32,028 nucleotides of DNA from a virus. Shown here piece by piece: positions 50 through 26,866 of the stretch. A program made the position numbers and the translations under genes. The notes under the pieces are model-generated. The model worked only from the letters and a program-made list of their open reading frames with translations, made no database searches and was not told the origin of the DNA. The stretch lies in the UHGV virus genome UHGV-0115055; one strand, 5' to 3'. The number at the start of each line of letters is the position of its first letter. Position 1 is the first letter of the stretch.

Positions 50-1063
50 TTACTCTACTGTGGACACTGTGTGGACACTCTCGGCCTCAGTACCACCTCT
101 TAGCGGATTAAGAGAAATGGCGTCCTGAAGGTACTCTGGCGCAAAATGAGCGTAAACCATAGTTTGTTCAATCCGCGTGTGACCTAGTATCCGTTGTAGC
201 GTGATAATACTTCCTCCATTAATCATGAAATGAGTGGCAAAGCTGTGCCTTAGTGCATGTGTGGCTTGCCCCATTGGCAAATCCGGTTTTATTGCTTTCA
301 TTGTTCGTCTGAAGCGAGGGTAATCAGCATCAGGGAATAAAAAACCTCGTTTGTTATCCGCGATCATTTTGGCAACAGCCTCTGAGATCGGGACGGTGCG
401 TGGTTTGTTTGTTTTCGTTTTAACAAACGTGACGCGGTTATGGATGATATTTTCTGCTTTCAAACGAGCTGCTTCTCCCCAACGTGCTCCAGTACTCAGG
501 CAAAGAATCGCAATCTTTTTATTGTCGCCGTCAAGAGCAGCAAGCAGTAAGGCAATTTCTTCCTGCGTGAGATAGCCTGTGTCTGGTTTTTCCTCCTTAA
601 GCTTTTTTGTCCCTCTGATAGGGTGCTCACCAAAGAATAACTCCGCTTCAATCAGGGCTGTAAACATGCCGCTAATACATGTTAAATCACGATTGATACT
701 CGAAGGTTTAATACCCTGACTTCTTCGGGTGGCGCAGTACTGGCTGATAAGCGATTTCGTAATTTGAAATGCGCATGGGTCATTCGTTATTTTTGTGAAG
801 ATTTCAATTTTTCCAAGATTAGATTTCCCATGCTCTTCGTGTTTACCCTTTAAATCCCACCAGATCTGTGTCAGCTCCGACAGACGTCGCTTGTCTGTTG
901 GTTTTGATAGCCATTCTTTATTGTGGTGGTTGTACAACGTGTATTTCTCGAAAGCGACAGCTTCGCTTTTCTTATCAAACTTCCTACGGATGCGTTTTCC
1001 ATTACGTCCAGTAGGGCGGATGTCCACTTCATATCGACCATCATCGAGTTTTTTGATTGCCAT
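50..1063 (-). CDS. int: tyrosine site-specific integrase (P2 Int-like)
   Basis: 337 aa; C-terminal catalytic region HALRHSFATH...LGHTRIEQTMVYAHF carries the tyrosine-recombinase R/H-x-x-R/Y signature; GGAGGG RBS upstream of ATG at 1063; first gene of a P2-ordered prophage. Confidence 0.93.
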   Translation of the reverse strand: MAIKKLDDGRYEVDIRPTGRNGKRIRRKFDKKSEAVAFEKYTLYNHHNKEWLSKPTDKRRLSELTQIWWDLKGKHEEHGKSNLGKIEIFTKITNDPCAFQITKSLISQYCATRRSQGIKPSSINRDLTCISGMFTALIEAELFFGEHPIRGTKKLKEEKPDTGYLTQEEIALLLAALDGDNKKIAILCLSTGARWGEAARLKAENIIHNRVTFVKTKTNKPRTVPISEAVAKMIADNKRGFLFPDADYPRFRRTMKAIKPDLPMGQATHALRHSFATHFMINGGSIITLQRILGHTRIEQTMVYAHFAPEYLQDAISLNPLRGGTEAESVHTVSTVE

Positions 1064-3360: not shown

Positions 3361-3632
3361 GTATTCGTATTGAAATTGGCGAACGTTATGTCGTTACCAG
3401 TGACAGCTTTCAGTTTATTCTCCACGAGAAAAAGAGAGCGGAAAGCGGTAAAAACGCCGGTCAGGAATGGCTGGCGGTGGTTGGTTATTACCCGAAATTA
3501 AGCCAGCTCGTTTCCGGCCTGATGCATCACGATATTCTGACCGGAAGCGCAAAATCTTTTGCTGATTTAAACGCGCAGGTTGAGCAACTCAGCAGGCGTT
3601 GTTCAGAGGCTTTTGGCTCACATGGACGTTAA
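3357..3632 (+). CDS. hypothetical early protein (P2 orf83 position)
   Basis: 91 aa ORF immediately upstream of A, overlapping its start. Confidence 0.6.
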   Translation: MSIRIEIGERYVVTSDSFQFILHEKKRAESGKNAGQEWLAVVGYYPKLSQLVSGLMHHDILTGSAKSFADLNAQVEQLSRRCSEAFGSHGR

Positions 3633-5907
3633 AGCCTCCGGGCGTTTTGTCCCTCCGTCAGCATTTGCCGCAGGCACCGGTAAGACGTTTACCGGTGCTT
3701 ATGCATGGAACGCGCCACGCGAGGCCGTCGGGCGCGAAAGACCCCTTACACGTGACGAGATGCGTCAGGTGCAAGGTGTTTTATCCACGATTAACCGCCT
3801 GCCTTACTTTTTGCGTTCGCTGTTTACTTCACGCTATGACTACATCCGGCGCAATAAAAGCCCGGTGCACGGGTTTTATTTCCTCACATCCACTTTTCAG
3901 CGTCGTTTATGGCCGCGCATTGAGCGCGTGAATCAGCGCCATGAAATGAACACCGACGCGTCGTTGCTGTTTCTGGCAGAGCGTGACCACTATGCGCGCC
4001 TGCCTGGAATGAATGACAAGGAGCTGAAAAAGTTTGCCGCCCGTATCTCATCGCAGCTTTTCATGATGTATGAGGAACTCTGCGATGCATGGGGTGATGC
4101 GCATGGTGAAAAAGAATCGCTGTTTACGGATGAGGCGCAGGCTCACCTCTATGGTCATGTTGCTGGCGCTGCACGTGCTTTCAATATTTCCCCGCTCTAC
4201 TGGAAAAAATACCGTAAAGGACAGATGACCACGAGGCAGGCATATTCTGCCATTGCCCGTCTGTTTAACGATGAGTGGTGGATTAGTCAGCTTAAAGGCC
4301 AGCGTATGCGCTGGCATGAGGCGTTACTGATTGCTGTCGGGGAGGTCAATAAAGACCGTTCTCCTTATGCCAGTAAACATGCCATTCGTGATGTGCGTGC
4401 GCGCCGCCAGGCAAATCTGGAATTTCTTAAATCGTGTGACCTTGAAAACAGGGAAACCGGCGAGCGCATCGACCTTATCAGTAAGGTGATGGGCAGTATT
4501 TCTAATCCTGAAATTCGCCGGATGGAGCTGATGAACACCATTGCCGGTATTGAGCGTTACGCCGCCGCAGAGGGTGATGTGGGGATGTTTATCACGCTGA
4601 CCGCGCCGTCAAAGTATCACCCGACACGTCAGGTCGGAAAAGGCGAAAGTAAAACCGTTCAGCTTAATCACGGCTGGAACGATGAGGCATTTAATCCAAA
4701 GGATGCGCAGCGTTATCTCTGCCGTATCTGGAGCCTGATGCGCACGGCATTCAAGGATAATGATTTACAGGTCTACGGTTTGCGAGTCGTCGAGCCACAC
4801 CACGACGGAACGCCGCACTGGCATATGATGCTTTTTTGTCATCCACGCCAGCGTAACCAGATTATCGAAATCATGCGTCGCTATGCGCTCAAAGAGGATG
4901 GCGACGAAAGAGGAGCCGCGCGAAACCGTTTTCAGGCAAAACACCTTAACCGGGGCGGTGCTGCGGGATATATCGCGAAATACATTTCAAAAAACATCGA
5001 CGGCTATGCACTGGATGGTCAGCTCGATAACGACACCGGCAGGCCGCTGAAAGACACTGCAGCGGCTGTTACCGCATGGGCGTCAACGTGGCGCATTCCG
5101 CAATTTAAAACAGTTGGCCTGCCGACAATGGGGGCTTACCGTGAACTACGCAAATTGCCTCGCGGCGTCAGCATTGCTGATGAGTTTGACGAGCGCGTCG
5201 AGGCTGCACGCGCCGCCGCAGACAGTGGTGATTTTGCGTTGTATATCAGCGCGCAGGGTGGGGCAAATGTCCCGCGCGATTGTCAGACTGTCAGGGTCGC
5301 CCGTAGCCCGTCGGATGACGTTAACGAGTATGAGGAAGAAGTCGAGAGAGTGGTCGGCATTTACGCGCCGCATCTCGGCGCGCGTCATATTCATATCACC
5401 AGAACGACGGACTGGCGCATTGTGCCGAAAGTTCCGGTCGTGGAGCCTTTGACTTTAAAAAGCGGCATCGCCGCGCCTCGGAGTCCTGTCAATAACTGTG
5501 GAAAGCTCACCGGTGGTGATACCTCGTTACCGGCTCCCACACCTTCTGAACACGCCGCAGCAGTGCTTAATCTGGTTGATGATGGTGTTATCGAATGGAA
5601 TGACCCGGAGGTCGTGAGGGCGCTCAGGGGGGCATTAAAACACGGCCTGAGAACATCTAATCGTCAGCAAAGAAACGGAAGCCCGTTAAAACCACATGAA
5701 ATAGCACCGTCGGCCAGACTGACCCGGTCGGAACGATTGCAAATTACCCGTATCCGCGTTGACCTCGCTCAGAACGGTATCAGGCCGCAACGATGGGAGC
5801 TTGAGGTGCTGGCGCGTGGCGCGACCGTAAATTATGACGGGAAAAAATTCACGTATCCGGTCGCTGATGAGTGGCCGGGATTCTCAACAGTAATGGCGCG
5901 GATATAA
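3622..5907 (+). CDS. A: rolling-circle replication initiation endonuclease (P2 gpA-like)
   Basis: ~761 aa from ATG at 3622 (track ORF begins at 3580 but overlaps orf83; the MDVKASGRFVPP start fits P2 A). Contains HUH-type motif (HHDGTPHWHMMLF) and catalytic-tyrosine region (GYIAKYISKN) typical of rolling-circle initiators. Confidence 0.93.
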   Translation: MDVKASGRFVPPSAFAAGTGKTFTGAYAWNAPREAVGRERPLTRDEMRQVQGVLSTINRLPYFLRSLFTSRYDYIRRNKSPVHGFYFLTSTFQRRLWPRIERVNQRHEMNTDASLLFLAERDHYARLPGMNDKELKKFAARISSQLFMMYEELCDAWGDAHGEKESLFTDEAQAHLYGHVAGAARAFNISPLYWKKYRKGQMTTRQAYSAIARLFNDEWWISQLKGQRMRWHEALLIAVGEVNKDRSPYASKHAIRDVRARRQANLEFLKSCDLENRETGERIDLISKVMGSISNPEIRRMELMNTIAGIERYAAAEGDVGMFITLTAPSKYHPTRQVGKGESKTVQLNHGWNDEAFNPKDAQRYLCRIWSLMRTAFKDNDLQVYGLRVVEPHHDGTPHWHMMLFCHPRQRNQIIEIMRRYALKEDGDERGAARNRFQAKHLNRGGAAGYIAKYISKNIDGYALDGQLDNDTGRPLKDTAAAVTAWASTWRIPQFKTVGLPTMGAYRELRKLPRGVSIADEFDERVEAARAAADSGDFALYISAQGGANVPRDCQTVRVARSPSDDVNEYEEEVERVVGIYAPHLGARHIHITRTTDWRIVPKVPVVEPLTLKSGIAAPRSPVNNCGKLTGGDTSLPAPTPSEHAAAVLNLVDDGVIEWNDPEVVRALRGALKHGLRTSNRQQRNGSPLKPHEIAPSARLTRSERLQITRIRVDLAQNGIRPQRWELEVLARGATVNYDGKKFTYPVADEWPGFSTVMARI

Positions 5908-6210
5908 TGACAAAGATTCACAAAGTAAAGCTGCACGCAAGATATTTCAACCTTGTGCTGGAGGGAAAAGAAACGCACAGAATTTAGGGGGATAGCCGTT
6001 ATCATGTGTATGAAGCACTTGAAATGTATCTGCATCACTTGGGAGTGTGTCAACGGGGAATTTCCATCTATGTGATTTTTTGAGAGCAATGCAGTGAAGA
6101 TAAAGATACTTATTATAAATCAATGTGATAGATGGTGCCTCGCAAACGTAAATGATAGTTTTGAAGCTTCAGGGCTGATGTCGTTCATAAGACTATGTTT
6201 ACGCTATCAT

Positions 6211-6241
6211 TTATGATAAAAATAATTAATTTTTATCATAA
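6211..6241. promoter_or_regulatory. 31-bp perfect palindrome (13-bp arms TTATGATAAAAAT / ATTTTTATCATAA, 5-bp spacer AATTA) immediately upstream of the island 1 nuclease-like gene; candidate operator
   Basis: Read directly from sequence; lies 17-23 bp upstream of the likely start codons (6258/6264). Confidence 0.5.
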
Positions 6242-6257
6242 AGATTCAACAGAGGAT

Positions 6258-7769
6258 ATGTTGATGAATCAACTAAAATCAATGAATATCAATAAGTTAC
6301 TTTTGGATGTTGATAACCCTCGTTTCCCGACGTCAGCAGAAAATCAGCGTGATGCTATTGCCAAGATGCTTGACATGCAGTACGACCGCATTTATCGCTT
6401 GGCTAAAGATATTGCTTCGAAAGGTTTAGATCCGTCTGAAAACATATTAGTTTATCCTAGTGAAGAGGAATCTGGCTTTTTCGTCGTTGCTGAAGGTAAT
6501 CGTCGAGTTACAGCCCTTAAACTTTTACACTCTCCTAGACTTGCACCAACAGAAAAAGCACGGAAAGCTTTTGAAAAACTTAAGATTACTCAGCTTAAAG
6601 ATATTAATGTTATAGATAACTGCGTTCTTTTTGACGATGATGAATATGAGCATTGGGTCAATTTAAAGCATACTGGTCAAAATGCTGGAGTTGGAAGAGT
6701 TGAATGGACTGCAACAGAAAAAGCACGACATCTGGCTAGGATGGGTAAGCAGTCATTTGGTAATCAAATACTTACATTTATAGAGTTCAATACTGATTTA
6801 TATAAAGAGATAATTGCTAAAAAAAGACTTTTAAAAATCACAAACATCACGCGTCTTTTTGGTGATTTAAAGGTGAGGGATTATTTTAATTTAAAAAGCA
6901 TTAATGGAGTTCTATACTCATATCAGCCTTATGAACGTTTTTGTGCACAATTAAAAAATATTTTAGATGTAATGATTGAAGAGGATGATAAAGGTAAGGC
7001 TTGTTTTACTGTTAATAGGATTCGTAGCCAAGATGACAGGGTTACATTTATTATTGAACAAAAAATAAAACCTTCAGAATCTCTTTTAGATAAGCCGTGG
7101 AGTTTACTGGAGCCTAAATCTTTTCTTACAGAGAAAAAACATGATTCTATTGACAAGAATGATGCATCTGTGAGTGTAAAGAAAGTAGGTCTTTCAGAAG
7201 GTGATGCCTTAAAGAATACAGGTGTGGATAAACAGGAAGATGATTATTCTAGACATGTAGGCACAGAAGAGAGTAAATCTAAAGTTTCGGGCACGGAACA
7301 GAATAAAAACAAGGGAAAAACTCCTCCTAAAGTAGATCGTAATGTGTTGGTGCCATCTTATGTGAAATTTAATTTTAGAGGGCATAAGAAATGCTCTAGA
7401 ATATTTAATGAGCTTAAGTCGCATCTGACATTTGATAACACCCCTAATGCTATCTCAATATTGTTGAGAATATTTATAGATCTCTCTGTAAGCACTTTTG
7501 TTGAAGAAAACAAGTTACAATTTAAGGAACCACATAGAACTCCAGGGCTTCATGATAAGGTTAAAATGTGTGCTAATTTCCTTCGGGAAAATAAAAAGAT
7601 GACGGGGAGTCAATGTACGGCTGTAATAACTTTCTCGAGCCAAATAACTAAACATGATGGTTCATTGCAGCAGTATGTACATAACCCACACTTAATTCCC
7701 TCAAAAGAGGCTGTCAACACTGAGTGGGATAACTTTGAGTTGTTATTAAGCCTTATTTGGAGTGAGTGA
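6258..7769 (+). CDS. ParB/Srx-like N-terminal domain protein (putative nuclease or NTP-dependent DNA-binding effector), cargo gene
   Basis: Track ORF 6195-7769 (524 aa); likely start at ATG 6258 or 6264 (GAGGA at 6252-6256; the palindrome would otherwise be inside the coding region). N-terminus has ParB-box-like motifs: LLLDVDNPRFP (like the ParB ...NP.QPR motif) and VVAEGNRRVTALKLL (like GxRRxxA). A K/E/S-rich low-complexity linker near 7100-7350 precedes an uncharacterised C-terminal domain. AT-rich codon usage unlike the backbone. Confidence 0.7.
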   Translation: MLMNQLKSMNINKLLLDVDNPRFPTSAENQRDAIAKMLDMQYDRIYRLAKDIASKGLDPSENILVYPSEEESGFFVVAEGNRRVTALKLLHSPRLAPTEKARKAFEKLKITQLKDINVIDNCVLFDDDEYEHWVNLKHTGQNAGVGRVEWTATEKARHLARMGKQSFGNQILTFIEFNTDLYKEIIAKKRLLKITNITRLFGDLKVRDYFNLKSINGVLYSYQPYERFCAQLKNILDVMIEEDDKGKACFTVNRIRSQDDRVTFIIEQKIKPSESLLDKPWSLLEPKSFLTEKKHDSIDKNDASVSVKKVGLSEGDALKNTGVDKQEDDYSRHVGTEESKSKVSGTEQNKNKGKTPPKVDRNVLVPSYVKFNFRGHKKCSRIFNELKSHLTFDNTPNAISILLRIFIDLSVSTFVEENKLQFKEPHRTPGLHDKVKMCANFLRENKKMTGSQCTAVITFSSQITKHDGSLQQYVHNPHLIPSKEAVNTEWDNFELLLSLIWSE

Positions 7770-7838
7770 GATTTGTCTACATCTGGACATGGATGTCCAG
7801 AAACTGATAAACTACAAAATCAGGAATGAGAGGGATTT

Positions 7839-8723
7839 ATGAAATTTTATACTCCATTAAGATACCCCGGCGGGAAAGGTAAGTTATCTTACTTTTTAAA
7901 AGATGTTATTGAAAAAAACTCGTTGAATGATGGAGCATATGCAGAACCTTACGCTGGTGGTGCAGGGGTGGCTTTAGAATTATTATTGGAAGAGTATGTC
8001 CGTAAAATCTATATAAATGATGCAGATTTTGCTGTTTATTCTTTTTGGTCATCTGTTGTTAGTGATACTGATGAGCTTTGCCGACTTATTAGCCGAGCAA
8101 AGATAGATATGGATGAATGGTCTTTTCATCGCTATGTTATTTCGAATCCTTCTGAGTTTACTAAGCTTGAGGTTGGCTTTGCTGCGTTTTTCTTAAATAG
8201 AACAAATCGTTCAGGTATTCTCAAGGCGGGGGTTATAGGCGGGAAATCACAAAATGGAAAATGGAAAATGGATGTTCGCTTTAACAGGGCGGATTTAATT
8301 TCAAGAATTGAGAAGATAGCAAATTATAATCAAAGAATAGTAGTAACTAATCTGGATGCTTTGGATTTTCTTGATGCCTTGAATTTTATGGATAATATGG
8401 GAAAGGTGGATAAAAATAAAATTCTTTTGTATTTGGATCCTCCTTACTATATTAAAGGGCAAGGGCTTTACAGGAATTTTTATGAGCATGATGACCATGT
8501 ATTGGTTATGAAGAAACTCACAGAAATTAATTTCCCAAATTGGCTTGTTTCTTATGATAACGCTAAAGAAATTAAAGATATTTATAATGGATTTCCGCAA
8601 GTTGAGTATTCATTGCAATATACAGCGCATCTCAAAAAATCTGGAGAGGAAGTGATGATTTTTTCTCCTGAAATAATTATTCCTAATACCCTGAAAGGGG
8701 TCTCAATGCCAACTTGCGCCTGA
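7839..8723 (+). CDS. D12-class (Dam-like) N6-adenine DNA methyltransferase, cargo gene
   Basis: 294 aa; N-terminal YPGGKGKL (Dam family GGK motif), AdoMet-binding motif I AEPYAGGAGV, catalytic motif IV LDPPYY. RBS GAGAGG upstream. AT-rich. Confidence 0.88.
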   Translation: MKFYTPLRYPGGKGKLSYFLKDVIEKNSLNDGAYAEPYAGGAGVALELLLEEYVRKIYINDADFAVYSFWSSVVSDTDELCRLISRAKIDMDEWSFHRYVISNPSEFTKLEVGFAAFFLNRTNRSGILKAGVIGGKSQNGKWKMDVRFNRADLISRIEKIANYNQRIVVTNLDALDFLDALNFMDNMGKVDKNKILLYLDPPYYIKGQGLYRNFYEHDDHVLVMKKLTEINFPNWLVSYDNAKEIKDIYNGFPQVEYSLQYTAHLKKSGEEVMIFSPEIIIPNTLKGVSMPTCA

Positions 8724-18299: not shown

Positions 18300-18935
18300 A
18301 TGAACACTCTCGCAAATATTCAGGAACTCGCGCGCGCACTGCGCAACATGATTCGCACCGGCCTTGTCGTCGAAACCAACCTTAAATCCGGTCGCTGCCG
18401 TGTGCAGACCGGCGGCATGTGCACCGACTGGCTTCAGTGGCTGACCTGTCGTGCCGGGCGTTCGCGCACATGGTGGGCACCTTCCGAGGGGGAGCAGGTG
18501 CTGATTCTGGCCGTGGGCGGTGAACTTGACACGGCGTTTGTTCTGCCGGGGATTTATTCCGGCGATAACCCCGCGCCGTCTGCGTCGGCGGATGCCCTGC
18601 ATATCCGTTTCCCTGACGGGGCGGTGATTGAGTATGAACCCAAAACCAGTGCACTCACGGTAAGCGGAATTAAAACGGCTAGCGTGACGGCTTCTGATTC
18701 TGTTACTGCCACGGTGCCGGTGGTCATGGTGAAAGCGTCAACCCGCATCACACTGGACACACCGGAGGTGGTCTGCACCAACAGGCTGATTACCGGCACG
18801 CTGGAAGTGCAGAAAGGCGGAACGATGCACGGCAACATTGAACATACCGGTGGTGAACTCTCATCAAACGGTAAGGTACTGCATACCCATAAACACCCCG
18901 GCGACAGCGGCGGCACAACCGGGAGTCCTCTATGA
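18300..18935 (+). CDS. V: baseplate spike protein V
   Basis: 211 aa, P2 V size and position. Confidence 0.9.
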   Translation: MNTLANIQELARALRNMIRTGLVVETNLKSGRCRVQTGGMCTDWLQWLTCRAGRSRTWWAPSEGEQVLILAVGGELDTAFVLPGIYSGDNPAPSASADALHIRFPDGAVIEYEPKTSALTVSGIKTASVTASDSVTATVPVVMVKASTRITLDTPEVVCTNRLITGTLEVQKGGTMHGNIEHTGGELSSNGKVLHTHKHPGDSGGTTGSPL

Positions 18936-19283: not shown

Positions 19284-20192
19284 ATGCCGATTATCGACCT
19301 GAACCAGCTACCCGCACCGGATGTGGTCGAGGAGCTGGACTTTGAAACCATTCTTGCCGAACGCAAGGCGACACTGATTTCCCTTTACCCGGAAGACCAG
19401 CAGGAGGCGGTCGCCCGTACCCTGACGCTGGAATCTGAGCCTCTCGTCAAACTGCTGGAGGAAAATGCTTATCGTGAGCTTATCTGGCGTCAGCGTGTGA
19501 ATGAGGCCGCACGGGCGGTGATGCTGGCCTGTGCCGCCGGTAATGACCTTGATGTGATTGGTGCCAATTACAACACCACGCGCCTGACTATCACCCCGGC
19601 AGATGATTCGACCATCCCGCCGACACCGGCAGTAATGGAATCTGACACCGATTATCGGCTGCGTATTCAGCAGGCGTTTGAGGGCTTAAGTGTCGCCGGG
19701 TCGGTGGGTGCCTATCAGTATCATGGCCGCAGTGCCGACGGGCGTGTCGCGGATATCTCTGTCACCAGTCCGTCTCCGGCCTGTGTCACCATCTCCGTGC
19801 TGTCACGTGAAAATAACGGCGTCGCATCCGAAGACCTGCTGGCTGTGGTGCGTAACGCCCTTAATGGCGAGGATGTCAGGCCGGTGGCCGACCGCGTGAC
19901 CGTGCAGTCTGCCGCCATTGTTGAATACCAGATAAACGCCACGCTTTACCTTTACCCTGGTCCCGAAAGCGAACCCATCCGCGCCGCCGCCGTGAAAAAA
20001 CTGGAAGCGTACATCACGGCACAGCACCGGCTGGGGCGCGACATCCGTCTGTCTGCCATTTATGCCGCTTTGCATGTGGAAGGCGTGCAGCGTGTCGAAC
20101 TGACTGCACCGCTGGCTGACATCGTGCTCAACAGTACGCAGGCGTCTTTCTGCACCGAATACAGCGTCGTGACCGGAGGCTCGGATGAGTGA
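19284..20192 (+). CDS. J: baseplate protein J
   Basis: 302 aa, P2 J size and position. Confidence 0.9.
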   Translation: MPIIDLNQLPAPDVVEELDFETILAERKATLISLYPEDQQEAVARTLTLESEPLVKLLEENAYRELIWRQRVNEAARAVMLACAAGNDLDVIGANYNTTRLTITPADDSTIPPTPAVMESDTDYRLRIQQAFEGLSVAGSVGAYQYHGRSADGRVADISVTSPSPACVTISVLSRENNGVASEDLLAVVRNALNGEDVRPVADRVTVQSAAIVEYQINATLYLYPGPESEPIRAAAVKKLEAYITAQHRLGRDIRLSAIYAALHVEGVQRVELTAPLADIVLNSTQASFCTEYSVVTGGSDE

Positions 20193-20715
20193 TTCGCGAC
20201 TGCTGCCGACCGGCTCATCACCGCTTGAGGTCGCCGCCGCAAAAGCCTGTGCGGAAATTGAAAAAACGCCGGTCAGTATTCGTGAGCTGTGGAACCCGGA
20301 CACCTGCCCGGCAAATCTGCTGCCGTGGCTGGCGTGGGCGTTTTCGGTCGACAGGTGGGATGAACAGTGGCCGGAAGCGACCAAACGCGCCGTTATCCGC
20401 GATGCCTATTTCATCCACTGTCATAAAGGCACTATAGGTGCAATCCGGCGTGTGGTGGAGCCGCTCGGCTATCTCATTAACGTAAAGGAATGGTGGGAGA
20501 CAAACGACCCGCCCGGAACCTTCCGCCTTGATATCGGCGTACTGGAAAGCGGCATCACGGAGGAGATGTATCTGGAAATGGAACGGCTTATTGCCGATGC
20601 CAAACCCGCAAGTCGCCACCTTATCGGTCTGAACATTATCCAGGACATTCCCGGCTATCTGTATACAGGCGGTGTGGTCTGTGATGGTGATGTTATTACT
20701 GTTTATCCCGGATAA
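20185..20715 (+). CDS. I: baseplate/tail fibre attachment protein I
   Basis: 176 aa, P2 I size and position. Confidence 0.9.
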   Translation: MSDSRLLPTGSSPLEVAAAKACAEIEKTPVSIRELWNPDTCPANLLPWLAWAFSVDRWDEQWPEATKRAVIRDAYFIHCHKGTIGAIRRVVEPLGYLINVKEWWETNDPPGTFRLDIGVLESGITEEMYLEMERLIADAKPASRHLIGLNIIQDIPGYLYTGGVVCDGDVITVYPG

Positions 20716-20725
20716 GTGAGAAACA

Positions 20726-23347
20726 ATGAGCACGAAATTTAAAACCGTTATCACTACTGCCGGAGCCGCAAAGCTGGCAGCCGCCACTGTCCCCGGCGGG
20801 AAAAAAGTAACTCTGTCTGCAATGGCCGTGGGTGACGGTAATGGCAAATTGCCGGTGCCGGATGCTGGTCAGACGAAACTGGTGCATGAGGTCTGGCGTC
20901 ACGCCCTGAATAAAGTCAGCGTGGATAATAAGAATAAAAACTATATCGTGGCTGAACTGGTTGTACCGCCCGAAGTGGGCGGCTTCTGGATGCGTGAGCT
21001 TGGTTTGTATGACGATGCCGGAACACTGATTGCGGTCGCCAACATGGCGGAAAGCTATAAGCCAGAACTGGCTGAAGGCTCCGGACGTGCGCAGACCTGC
21101 CGCATGGTTGTTATTGTCAGCAACGTGTCGTGCGTTGAGCTGAGTATTGATGCCAGCACAGTGATGGCGACGCAGGATTACGTCGATGACAAAATCGCAG
21201 AGCATGAGCAGTCCCGCCGCCATCCTGACGCCACGCTGACAGAAAAAGGTTTTACTCAGTTAAGCAGTGCAACAAACAGCACCAGTGAAAAGCAGGCTGC
21301 AACGCCAAAGGCAGTAAAAGCAGCCTATGACAATGCTGAGAAACGTCTGCAGAAAGACCAGAACGGTGGCGATATTCCAGATAAGGGCGCTTTTCTGGAC
21401 AATATTGGCGTTACCAGCCTGACGTTTATGAAACACAATGGAATGATTCCAACCACTGACAATCTTGACTCCTATGGCCCAGAAGAAAAATATCTTGGAA
21501 CGTGGTCATGTCCGTCACAATCCACTGCAAAACCAGAGTCTGGTTACCCTGAAGATAAAGGCAATGGGGTTCTGGAAGTATTCAATGCTGGTCGCTTTCA
21601 CTGCACACAACGCTACACCACCCGAACCGGTAATATTTACATTCGGATGCTTGATGCAGAATGGAACCCAGCCAGTCCAACATGGAGTGCATGGAGAGTT
21701 ATTACAAGCGGGACTCGACCATTAAGCACGTCAATTGACCTGAATTCTTTAGGTGGTGCGGAACACCTGGGAATATGGCGCAATAGCAGTACATCAATAG
21801 CCTCATTTGACCGTCATTTCCCGGAGGAAGGGAGTTTTGGGCAGGGTATTCTGGAAGTCTTTGAAGGCGGTCTGTATGGGAGGATGCAACGTTACACCAC
21901 CCGTAGTGGGACTATGTACATTCGCGGACTGACTGCCTCATGGGATGCAGAAAATCCACAATGGGAGGACTGGATTGCTGTTGGGTATCAGTCCACGGGA
22001 TGGACTTATTCAGGGGATCTTGATGACCTTTTAAAGCCTGGTATTTATAGCGTTACGAAACAGGCCACAAATGCACCTGTCACCGACTCTAAAGATCTTG
22101 CTGTTGGCTCAATAGTTGAAGTGAAAAAACGTTGTGATATTGAATCGTATATCCAGACATACACGACTGTTTCAGCAACGGATGCCTATAAAAACCGGAC
22201 ATTTCAGCGAACCCGCGCCAGCGGTGAAACTGACTGGGGGGAATGGGCGGAAGTATACAACTCAAAATCATTACTCACTAAATTAGGTGTCGGCGGTGTT
22301 ACCGACAGGTTATCCAGTCTGGACTGGCAGACCTACGACTTTATACCGGGCAGCATGATAACTGTCAGGCTTTCAGATATGACCAATATTCCCGATGGGA
22401 TGGAATGGGGCGTCATTGATACTAACCTGATAAATATCACTGTTGGCCCCAGTGAAGGCGGAGGTGTCGCCCGTTCAATGCATGTATGGCGCAGCACTTC
22501 AAACAAAACCAACTATCGTTTTTTTACAGTCCGCTTATATGGCAATCCTGGGGAGCGTAGCTTCAATATTCGTCGGCTACCAATTATCGACGAAGCCCAG
22601 ACATGGGAGGCAAAACAGACATTCAGTGCAGGCCTTTCTGGTGAACTGTCCGGCAATGCGGCTACAGCAACAAAGCTGAAAACGGCAAGGACAATTAACG
22701 GCGTAAAATTTGACGGCTCGGCAAATATTGAAGCGTTTCCGCCTGGTGTTCCGCTGCCGTGGCCATCAGATACACCACCTGCAGGCTATGCAATCATGCA
22801 GGGGCAGACGTTTGATAAGGCAGCATATCCGAAACTGGCTATAGCCTATCCTTCTGGTGTTATTCCTGATATGCGCGGCTGGACAATCAAGGGCAAACCC
22901 GCCAGTGGGCGTGCTGTATTGTCACAGGAACAGGACGGGATTAAATCGCATACTCACAGTGCCAGTGCGTCAAATACGGATTTGGGAACGAAAACAACCA
23001 GTTCGTTTGATTACGGCACGAAGACGGTCAGTACGTTTAATCATGGCACAAAATCAACGAACAATACGGGCAATCATACGCACACTGTCGGTGGTGTTTA
23101 TGGCGGCGACTCTGTCGGTGGAAAACAGCGTGTACAGGCTTCAGGAAACAATCAGGTGTCCAGCACCGCCGGAGCGCACGCCCATACGGTGGATATTGGT
23201 CAGCATAACCACACTGTAGGTATTGGTGCCCATGCACACACTGTGGCCCTGGGTGCGCACGGACACACCATCACGGTAAATGCTACGGGTAATACCGAAA
23301 ACACCGTCAAAAACATCGCATTTAACTATATTGTGAGGCTTGCATAA
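20726..23347 (+). CDS. H: tail fibre protein H (mosaic: conserved N-terminal anchor, divergent receptor-binding distal part)
   Basis: 873 aa, longer than P2 H (669 aa). N-terminal ~160 aa are P2-H-like; the remainder has an internal duplicated ~50 aa domain and a C-terminal array of H-x-H-T repeats; GC content drops in the distal part. Confidence 0.9.
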
Positions 23348-23925
23348 TGGCTTTCAGAATGAGTGCAGAAGCACAAACTATCCGCGTTTTCAATTTACTT
23401 GATGGAACCAATGAATTTATTGGTGAAAGTGACGCATATATTCCGCCGCATACAGGTCTGCCTGCAAACAGTACAGATATTGCACCGCCTGATATTCCTG
23501 CTGGTTATGCAGCCGTTTTCAATGCAGATGAAATGAAATGGGAACTGATGGAAGACCATCGCGGAAAGACCGTCTATGAAACGAAAACGGGAGCAGCCAT
23601 TTATATTTCTGAACTTGGCGTATTACCTCCAGACGTGACAGCCATTTCCCCGGATGGGGATTATCAGAAATGGAACGGCAATGCGTGGGTGAATGATGAG
23701 AATGCAGAGCGTGATGCGCTTGTCAGAGCGGCTGACTCTCAGAAGAAAGAGCTGATTGCATATGCAGGTGAAATTATTGCCACTCTGCAGGATGCTGTCG
23801 ATTTAGATATGGCTACCGAGGAAGAAAAGTTAAGCCTGACACACTGGAAAAAATACCGTGTGCTACTGAATCGCGTTCAGCCGGAAAATGCCCCGGATAT
23901 TGAATGGCCGAAAATGCCGCAATAA
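23347..23925 (+). CDS. G: tail fibre assembly chaperone G
   Basis: 192 aa directly downstream of H with ATAATG overlap; position of P2 G. Confidence 0.85.
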
Positions 23926-24492: not shown

Positions 24493-25374
24493 ATGGATAA
24501 AAATAAATTGGTTAAATTTTCACTAGTCGAAAACGCCTTGGATTCTATTGAGCTAGGTTTGGAGTATTTTTACGAAGCAAAAAAAGAATTCACGCCACGT
24601 AAATATAAACAATGCCTAATTAATATGTTTCATGGCTCGGAGTTAATCCTGAAAGAAATATTGAGTAGGATAAATATTATACTCATATTCGACAAAAACT
24701 CTTTATTTAAAATTTGCAAAGATCCTTTAAGTCCTACTGGGGATGAGTTGTATAAATTAAAATCAATAGATATTAATAGCTTATGCGATGAGGTTGTGAA
24801 GCATTATCCGGACGAGTTTAAAGGAAAGCTTAATATTGTCAAGGGCCTAGCTAGAGAAAGAAACAAGATACAGCATTTTGCAATCGAAATATCACCAGAG
24901 ATATTATCAAGGTTACTCTCAAGTCTTTACATTGATGTTTTTAAGCCATCCTTTAAAATAATTTTATCTGAGCTTGATTATGTTAATCAATACAATTCGC
25001 TGATTGAAAGGCAGATTATAGGTGCTGAAAAGACATTTCTTAAAATACAAGGTGATACTGATAACTATTTAGCTCTTTGTCCAAAGTGCGAGAACCATTC
25101 TCACTTTATATTGTACAAAGGTACGGGTTACCCTGTTGAGACCTATTGTATTTGCTGTGATTATAAAAATACAGATATTGACATATCAGATTATCTGGTA
25201 TGTCCTGAATGCGGATTCCCGTCATTGATATTTGATGAAAAAAATAATGCAGGAGTCTGCCTCAACGAGAAGTGTTACTATGGAATACAAGGTGGATTCG
25301 TAGAAATGGAACCATGTGAAAATTGTGATGGCTTTATTATTGAAGGTTCATGCCCAGAATGTGATACGGATTGA
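24493..25374 (+). CDS. cargo protein: putative HEPN-like domain fused to three C-terminal Cys4 zinc-ribbon units; candidate single-gene anti-phage (abortive infection) effector
   Basis: 293 aa in a strongly AT-rich island at the P2 Z/fun position. R-N-x3-H motif (ARERNKIQHF) typical of HEPN RNases in a predicted helical N-terminal region; C-terminus has paired Cys motifs CPKC..CICC, CPEC..CLNEKC, CENC..CPEC. Possible extended -10 promoter (TGaTAATAA around 24428-24436) upstream. Confidence 0.7.
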   Translation: MDKNKLVKFSLVENALDSIELGLEYFYEAKKEFTPRKYKQCLINMFHGSELILKEILSRINIILIFDKNSLFKICKDPLSPTGDELYKLKSIDINSLCDEVVKHYPDEFKGKLNIVKGLARERNKIQHFAIEISPEILSRLLSSLYIDVFKPSFKIILSELDYVNQYNSLIERQIIGAEKTFLKIQGDTDNYLALCPKCENHSHFILYKGTGYPVETYCICCDYKNTDIDISDYLVCPECGFPSLIFDEKNNAGVCLNEKCYYGIQGGFVEMEPCENCDGFIIEGSCPECDTD

Positions 25375-25675: not shown

Positions 25676-26866
25676 ATGAGTGACTATCATCACGGCGTGC
25701 AGGTGCTGGAGATTAACGACGGCACCCGCGTCATTTCCACCGTATCAACCGCCATTGTCGGCATGGTCTGCACAGCCAGCGATGCGGATGCGGAAACCTT
25801 CCCCCTCAATAAACCGGTGCTGATTACCAATGTGCAGAGCGCAATTGCAAAGGCTGGTAAAAAAGGCACGCTGGCGGCATCGTTGCAGGCCATCGCCGAC
25901 CAGTCAAAACCGGTCACCGTTGTCGTGCGTGTGGAAGACGGCACCGGCGACGACGAGGAAACGAAACTCGCGCAGACCGTTTCCAATATCATCGGCACCA
26001 CCGACGAAAACGGTCAGTACACCGGACTGAAAGCCCTGCTGGCGGCGGAGTCGGTAACCGGTGTTAAACCGCGTATTCTCGGTGTGCCGGGGCTGGATAC
26101 CAAAGAGGTGGCTGTTGCACTGGCATCCGTCTGTCAGAAGCTGCGCGCTTTCGGGTATATCAGCGCATGGGGCTGTAAAACCATTTCCGAGGTGAAAGCC
26201 TACCGTCAGAATTTCAGCCAGCGTGAGCTGATGGTCATCTGGCCGGATTTCCTCGCATGGGATACGGTCACCAGTACCACCGCCACCGCGTATGCCACCG
26301 CCCGTGCGCTGGGTCTGCGTGCCAGAATCGACCAAGAGCAGGGCTGGCATAAAACGCTGTCCAACGTCGGGGTAAACGGTGTTACCGGCATCAGTGCGTC
26401 CGTATTCTGGGATTTGCAGGAGTCCAGCACCGATGCTGACCTGCTGAACGAGTCAGGTGTCACAACGCTGATTCGCCGTGACGGTTTCCGCTTCTGGGGT
26501 AACCGTACCTGCTCTGATGACCCGCTGTTCCTCTTTGAAAACTACACCCGCACCGCGCAGGTGCTGGCCGACACGATGGCTGAGGCGCACATGTGGGCGG
26601 TGGACAAGCCCATCACCGCAACGCTGATTCGCGACATCGTTGACGGCATCAATGCCAAATTCCGAGAGCTGAAAACAAACGGCTATATCGTGGATGCGAC
26701 CTGCTGGTTCAGTGAAGAATCCAACGATGCGGAAACCCTCAAGGCCGGAAAACTGTATATCGACTACGACTATACCCCGGTGCCTCCTCTTGAAAACCTG
26801 ACCCTGCGCCAGCGTATTACTGATAAATACCTGGCAAATCTGGTCACCTCGGTTAACAGCAATTAA
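25676..26866 (+). CDS. FI: contractile tail sheath protein
   Basis: 396 aa, P2 FI size and position. Confidence 0.93.
   Translation: MSDYHHGVQVLEINDGTRVISTVSTAIVGMVCTASDADAETFPLNKPVLITNVQSAIAKAGKKGTLAASLQAIADQSKPVTVVVRVEDGTGDDEETKLAQTVSNIIGTTDENGQYTGLKALLAAESVTGVKPRILGVPGLDTKEVAVALASVCQKLRAFGYISAWGCKTISEVKAYRQNFSQRELMVIWPDFLAWDTVTSTTATAYATARALGLRARIDQEQGWHKTLSNVGVNGVTGISASVFWDLQESSTDADLLNESGVTTLIRRDGFRFWGNRTCSDDPLFLFENYTRTAQVLADTMAEAHMWAVDKPITATLIRDIVDGINAKFRELKTNGYIVDATCWFSEESNDAETLKAGKLYIDYDYTPVPPLENLTLRQRITDKYLANLVTSVNSN

Follow-up and report, generated by a model that had tools for sequence, protein, structure and literature searches.

The tail fibre gene H of the viral genome UHGV-0115055 ends in a series of regularly spaced His-x-His (HxH) motifs, and this raises the question of whether the motifs belong to a metal-stabilised receptor-binding tip or have some other origin. 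The DNA analysed, referred to below as the window, comprises 32,028 nucleotides and represents a P2-like (Peduovirus) prophage that is nearly complete. The analysis indicates, with a probability of about 0.92, that this part of H forms the needle of a receptor-binding tip of the T4 gp37 type placed on a P2-like H shaft, the tip being predicted by homology to form a trimer with six metal sites. The analysis establishes the motifs themselves and their homology, the pattern of conservation, where the mosaic boundaries of H lie and which type of chaperone is encoded downstream.

Setting and layout of gene H

Gene H follows the baseplate genes J and I, and the gene order around it is the same in Peduovirus P24A7b and Yersinia phage L-413C. 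The coordinates of the genes and of the parts of H are collected in Table 1. The N-terminus of H (aa 1-151) matches a tail-collar fibre domain, which is the N-terminal domain of P2 gpH (Pfam PF12571, E = 5.9e-57), and a Phage_fiber_2 repeat is found at aa 170-210 (PF03406, E = 2e-21). Judged from this N-terminal domain and from its position after J and I, H is a P2-like (Peduoviridae) tail fibre protein. A Collar domain stands directly before the needle (PF07484, E = 7.2e-10; 39.1 bits, the cut-off being 24), and the ascending limb of the needle gives a weak match, under the cut-off, to the Phage_fiber repeat PF03335 (E = 0.0045). The layout of H, as read from the sequence comparisons described below, is a P2/L-413C-type shaft to about aa 655 followed by a T4 gp37-type tip.

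Table 1. Coordinates in the window of the genes referred to in the text and of the parts of the H tip.
Feature	Position	Strand	Remarks
Integrase	50-1063	-	
Replication protein A	3580-5907		
J-like ORF	19284-20192		Upstream of H
I-like ORF	20185-20715		Upstream of H
Tail fibre gene H	20726-23347	+	873 aa
Whole T4 gp37-type tip module (collar, needle, head)	22688..23344	+	aa 655-873; phmmer against PDB, 2XGF
Collar domain core	22745..22888	+	aa 674-721; Pfam PF07484
Ascending needle limb	22949..23083	+	aa 742-786; HTH 742-744, GTK decapeptides 754-783, HTH 784-786
Distal-needle and head cassette, ~250 bp	~23040-23285 (approximate)	+	Differs from P24A7b; sliding 30-nt identity
Head segment	23087..23176	+	aa 788-817; hypervariable turn between limbs, predicted receptor-contact surface
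Descending needle limb	23177..23266	+	aa 818-847; four HxHT(V/I), 9-residue period
C-terminal strand returning to collar	23282..23344	+	aa 853-873; sequence identity to T4 gp37 and lambda Stf
Tail fibre assembly chaperone G	23347-23925	+	192 aa; Caudo_TAP; start codon overlaps H stop codon
Tail sheath gene	25676-26866		

Three mutually similar segments of ~50 aa were seen within the H shaft, at aa ~283-520 (window ~21572-22290, + strand). They follow the pattern G(V/I)LEVF...RYTTR(T/S)G..YIR......W..W, the third copy being more diverged, and are reminiscent of the knob domains that R-pyocin fibres have in tandem.

Homology of the histidine motifs to the T4 gp37 tip

Positions 22920-23300 of the window, read in frame +3, are in frame with the H ORF and cover aa ~733-858. 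An earlier note on this DNA, made from the sequence alone, had claimed a His-x-His array near the C-terminus of H, and such an array is indeed found. H contains six HxH motifs, all within the last 132 of its 873 residues, at aa 742 (22949-22957), 784 (23075-23083), 818 (23177-23185), 827 (23204-23212), 836 (23231-23239) and 845 (23258-23266). The spacings are 42, 34, 9, 9 and 9 residues, the last four motifs being exactly 9 apart, and these four (AHAHTV, QHNHTV, AHAHTV and AHGHTI) conform to (A/Q)HxHT(V/I). The ladder extends over both limbs of the needle, with two motifs on the ascending and four on the descending limb. Three GTK decapeptides begin at aa 754, 764 and 774 (aa 754-783; nt 22985-23074). 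These had been described as three GTK(T/S)xSxF repeats, a form that the first two fit but that the third does not, sharing only GTK(S) and lacking SxF.

At the DNA level, Tandem Repeats Finder detected no tandem array at 22600-23400, and the only DNA-level repeat in the repeat region is a 14-nt core, CAYACNCACACTGT, which recurs four times with 79-100% identity. Given that there is no tandem array and that this core alone recurs, the periodicity of the H repeats is held at the protein level, and an origin of the protein repeats by recent duplication was rejected on the Tandem Repeats Finder result.

Searching all PDB chains with phmmer matched H residues 655-873 to residues 16-242 of the 242 residues of 2XGF chain A, with ~60% identity (E = 3e-76). 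2XGF is the crystallised tip of T4 gp37 (gp37 residues 785-1026), and the match spans the collar, both needle limbs, the head and the final strand of H. The likeness to the T4 gp37 tip that had been suggested from the motifs is thus one of direct homology from end to end. In T4 gp37 the collar D10 consists of residues 811-881 and 1010-1026 and the needle with its small distal head, D11, of residues 882-1009; HxH motifs coordinate seven irons along the needle, head residues bind OmpC/LPS, and plaque formation is abolished for H929A, H931A (Islam 2019, PMC6957217). In a gp37-type needle the chain reverses its course at the head, giving a six-stranded barrel (PMC12609058).

The T4 tip has seven HxH motifs, at 883, 915, 929, 966, 980, 989 and 998, matching its seven irons in number, and the comparison that the earlier note had proposed finds counterparts in H for six of them. 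The four descending-limb motifs of H align with T4 966/968, 980/982, 989/991 and 998/1000. The ascending limb of H is homologous to T4 gp37 883-931, in D11, and here one T4 motif is without a counterpart, with the aligners differing as to which. H 742 aligns with T4 883, whereas H 784 pairs with T4 929 in HMMER and with T4 915 in MAFFT, and because of this disagreement (915/917 or 929/931) the individual sites of the ascending limb can be equated only tentatively. The MAFFT reading, which leaves the head-proximal T4 929/931 unmatched, is favoured since lambda possesses a third GTK unit as well as an extra HxH unit. On the alignments, T4 929/931 may then be the motif lacking in H.

The H and T4 tips thus have in common the collar, a GTK-type decapeptide repeat, the HxH ladder, an identical stretch of 15 C-terminal residues and a downstream chaperone gene. 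They differ in that H has six HxH motifs rather than seven, an extra GTK decapeptide in the absence of one ascending 14-residue HxH unit, and a descending limb shorter by 5 residues. Furthermore, the shaft that bears the H tip is of P2 type and belongs to a temperate phage, whereas the T4 tip is found on a T-even distal half-fibre.

Conservation was examined by aligning 82 distinct related tips to H. Each of the 12 histidines in the motifs is 99-100% conserved, while the non-motif histidine H773 is conserved in 37% of the tips and column conservation in the head (aa 788-817) is only 20-40%. The same 12 histidines are invariant or nearly so in alignments A1 and A2. Identity to T4, lambda, P24A7b and the T-even phage PTE-Eco15 is 73-99% in the collar, 65-93% in the ascending limb, 71-97% in the descending limb and 90-100% in the final strand, the last being 95% for T4 gp37 and 90% for lambda Stf; over aa 668-741 the collar is 73-82% identical to T4, lambda and RE-2010. 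Identity in the head is 30% to T4, 23% to P24A7b, 23% to lambda and 80% to PTE-Eco15 gp37. The head is hypervariable, whereas identity over the last 21 residues is 90-100% to T4, lambda and P24A7b, and at the level of sequence this agrees with a chain that doubles back. The pattern as a whole is that expected for a metal-pinned scaffold bearing a variable receptor-binding apex.

Proposed architecture of the needle

The arrangement proposed here takes the trimer topology, the binding and identity of the metal, the requirement for the chaperone and the contact of the head with the receptor from the T4 structure and from related work. Three H chains would ascend from the collar as three strands (aa 742-787), turn in the small variable head (aa 788-817), where contact with the receptor is predicted, and return as three descending strands (aa 818-852) ending back at the collar (aa 853-873), giving a six-stranded intertwined needle. 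At each HxH level six imidazoles from the three chains would face the trimer axis and hold one buried metal ion, most likely Fe(II), in octahedral coordination. Six ions per fibre tip are therefore predicted as against seven in T4, and the most probable role of the metal sites is to fix the three chains in register and make the needle stiffer. An AlphaFold2 monomer model of H 641-873, made with a 42-sequence alignment, was of low confidence for the single chain (pLDDT 49.7, pTM 0.19), as is expected if the tip is an obligate intertwined trimer.

In an octahedral Fe site of this kind, three HxH motifs related by symmetry supply the six histidines (Buth 2018, PMC6116203), and this threefold HxH site is a general one, seen in gp37, in the gpV spike of P2 and in the R-pyocin fibre (PMC6116203). 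The coordination in the gpV spike and in the R-pyocin fibre shaft resembles that in the proposed needle, with three chains each giving one HxH to one octahedral Fe (PMC6116203), but those two have single sites in different folds while H would have a ladder of them along a needle that runs up and down. The gpV of the window (18300-18935) carries HTHKH near its C-terminus (aa 195-199, 18882-18896, + strand), and in the P2 gpV spike an HxH motif of this kind binds iron (PMC6116203).

The needle fold could be kept with ions other than iron buried in it, either Zn(II), which is the ion modelled in gp12, the short tail fibre of T4, or some other divalent metal. Nothing in the H sequence specifies the metal, and the HxH site of gp12 does contain zinc in the crystal structure, but that zinc may derive from refolding in a zinc salt (PMC6116203). 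Given that gp37, the direct homologue ~60% identical to H, has iron in its HxH sites, as do P2 gpV, the phi92 spike and both the fibre and the spike of R-pyocin in theirs (PMC6116203), a metal other than iron is unlikely.

The number of HxH motifs varies between related tips, with five in Salmonella phage RE-2010, six in the window, P24A7b and PTE-Eco15, seven in T4 and eight in lambda Stf. Among 108 close database tips there are six motifs in 95, seven in 11 and five in two, indicating that the six-site form is the common form in E. coli prophages. In the two fibres of Bas63 the number of di-His motifs (6 versus 7) tracks the length of the needle (PMC12609058). It may be asked whether the six-site form is a distinct variant of the needle, in which the T4/lambda-type ascending HxH unit has been replaced by an extra metal-free GTK decapeptide, coupled with exchange of a cassette between temperate and virulent phages. 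This is doubtful. Were it true, one level of the stem would lack an ion, with effects on flexibility or on receptor triggering, and the head common to H and a virulent T-even phage would show that temperate and virulent phages have exchanged a defined 'distal needle + head' cassette.

Origin of the tip, its chaperone and its distribution

The H gene is a mosaic. Its first 1958-1973 nt (the N-terminal 653-657 aa) are shared with L-413C H at ~96% (96.5%) nucleotide identity, within the same V-W-J-I-H-G context found in L-413C and P2, and the two genes are then unrelated. The break between shaft and tip is sharp, at window ~22683-22698 (aa ~653-657), and coincides with the first residue of 2XGF homology, aa 655. 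Beyond the equivalent of window 22698 the C-terminus of L-413C H has no HxH motif. The closest phage record is P24A7b (LR595887 / NC_049390), which has the same architecture and gene order as the window and 96.8% nucleotide identity over H and G. Identity to P24A7b in sliding 30-nt segments is 28-30/30 and drops to 9-23/30 only over the cassette listed in Table 1, the divergence being seen from the segment at 23021-23050 to that at 23253-23282. This sole differing patch of the tip stretches between the third GTK unit and the last HxH motif, and the distal needle and head have been replaced within it.

The tip of gp37 from the T-even phage vB_EcoM_PTE-Eco15 is 84% identical to that of H at the protein level, with the descending limb 97% identical and six HxH motifs in a matching arrangement; the head within the ~250-bp cassette thus resembles, by sequence, a T-even phage head. 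The rest of the PTE-Eco15 fibre is unrelated, and since the nucleotide identity is only 78.7% the likeness of the heads is not due to recent transfer. The lambda side tail fibre Stf (orf-314) shares 57% identity over the tip and the three GTK decapeptides, but its head insert is much larger. DNA similarity to lambda stf is 78.5% over 22733-23084 and 71.9% over 23168-23909, continuing through the tip and reaching into the chaperone gene tfa.

Under the proposed architecture, host specificity would lie in the variable head and be swapped as a cassette between conserved His-containing flanks. A related idea, found in older T-even literature, is that the DNA of a 'His box' acts as a recombination site, although none of the papers searched used this term. 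Applied to H, the His-motif DNA would be kept mainly as recombination sites for head-cassette swaps and the metal role would be secondary. The cassette that diverges from P24A7b includes His motifs and is flanked by conserved sequence, a head 80% identical in protein sequence is present in an unrelated T-even phage, and the 14-nt core recurs, all of which might be expected of such sites. The edges of the cassette, however, lie outside the His motifs rather than within them, and the descending His motifs inside the cassette are only ~70% identical to P24A7b in DNA, which indicates that the motifs are conserved as protein and not as DNA. Recombination as the main role is thus quite improbable, though the two roles are not mutually exclusive.

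The protein encoded directly downstream of H, G, matches the Pfam family Caudo_TAP (PF02413, E = 2.6e-40). It is 65% identical over its full length to lambda orf-194 (Tfa) and 28% identical over 181 aa to T4 gp38, while only its C-terminal 141 aa resemble L-413C G (34%). The PTE-Eco15 chaperone is T4 gp38-like and 28% identical to G. By these matches G is an assembly chaperone of the lambda Tfa / T4 gp38 type, and it would be expected to chaperone the trimerisation of H. In the modular model for TFA proteins the N-terminal domain is specific to the fibre and the conserved C-terminal helical domain mediates trimerisation (PMC9608196). The lambda/T4-type N-terminal part of G and its L-413C-like C-terminal part fit this model. 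Taken with the lambda-like DNA running from the tip into tfa, this pattern suggests that the tip moved in company with the part of its chaperone that is specific to the fibre. The overlap of the H stop codon with the G start codon reads TAATG, and a weak 12-nt tandem repeat extending across both codons at 23337-23361 (+ strand; 2.1 copies, score 36) is probably trivial.

The identity of G also bears on whether H might be only a stalk, as in fibres of the T2/S16 type, where a separate downstream adhesin caps the tip and binds the receptor. Many T-even phages do use such a gp38 adhesin and a gene does directly follow H, but G is a Caudo_TAP homologue of the chaperone type and not a glycine-rich adhesin, and H is homologous to the T4-type tip up to its last residue, its own head included. 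This arrangement is very improbable indeed and was rejected.

That the His-x-His pattern is due to chance or low complexity and has no structural role, as might be supposed from a repetitive region rich in G, T, S and H, is effectively refuted by shuffling of the last 140 residues of H (mean 1.11 HxH motifs, with at least six in 12 of 100,000 shuffles) and of whole H (mean 0.53, with at least six in none of 20,000), by the exact 9-residue period, by the conservation of all 12 motif histidines compared with H773, and by the homology to 2XGF, a solved metal-binding needle.

A T4 gp37-type needle is thus the preferred reading, and tips related to that of H are widespread. A tblastn search gave 621 phage records matching the tip, including T-even gp37, lambda Stf, P2-like H and Felixounavirus fibres, and 2242 database proteins match it at E <= 1e-10. 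Of 5426 complete E. coli genomes, 3588 (about two thirds) contain DNA related to the tip and chaperone; the median number of places per genome is two, and the best match, in strain N10, is 99.5% identical. The gp37-type iron needle is structurally characterised and HxH motifs are recognised in lambda, Felixounavirus and other fibres, so that the module is already known and ubiquitous. The finding consequently carries little weight as a discovery, its practical value being in annotation and engineering. The bounds of the module (the junction at ~aa 655, the head and the ~250-bp cassette), together with the cognate chaperone, could be of help in retargeting P2-like particles or tailocins.

Two further loci in the window were observed. 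The two genes that follow replication gene A (6195-8723, + strand) match the anti-phage system PD-Lambda-5, a 524-aa protein matching PD-Lambda-5_A (E = 9.5e-168) and a 294-aa D12-class adenine methyltransferase matching PD-Lambda-5_B (E = 1.4e-121). Their position corresponds to a P2 accessory-gene hotspot. Between the chaperone gene G and the sheath gene there is a 293-aa ORF (24493-25374, + strand) with a GC content of 33% compared with 51% for the window. It has no Pfam match and contains several CxxC pairs in its C-terminal half, while over the N-terminal 170 aa it matches PDC-S64, a candidate defence family in PADLOC (E = 2.6e-22). This ORF is probably cargo at a second P2 hotspot.
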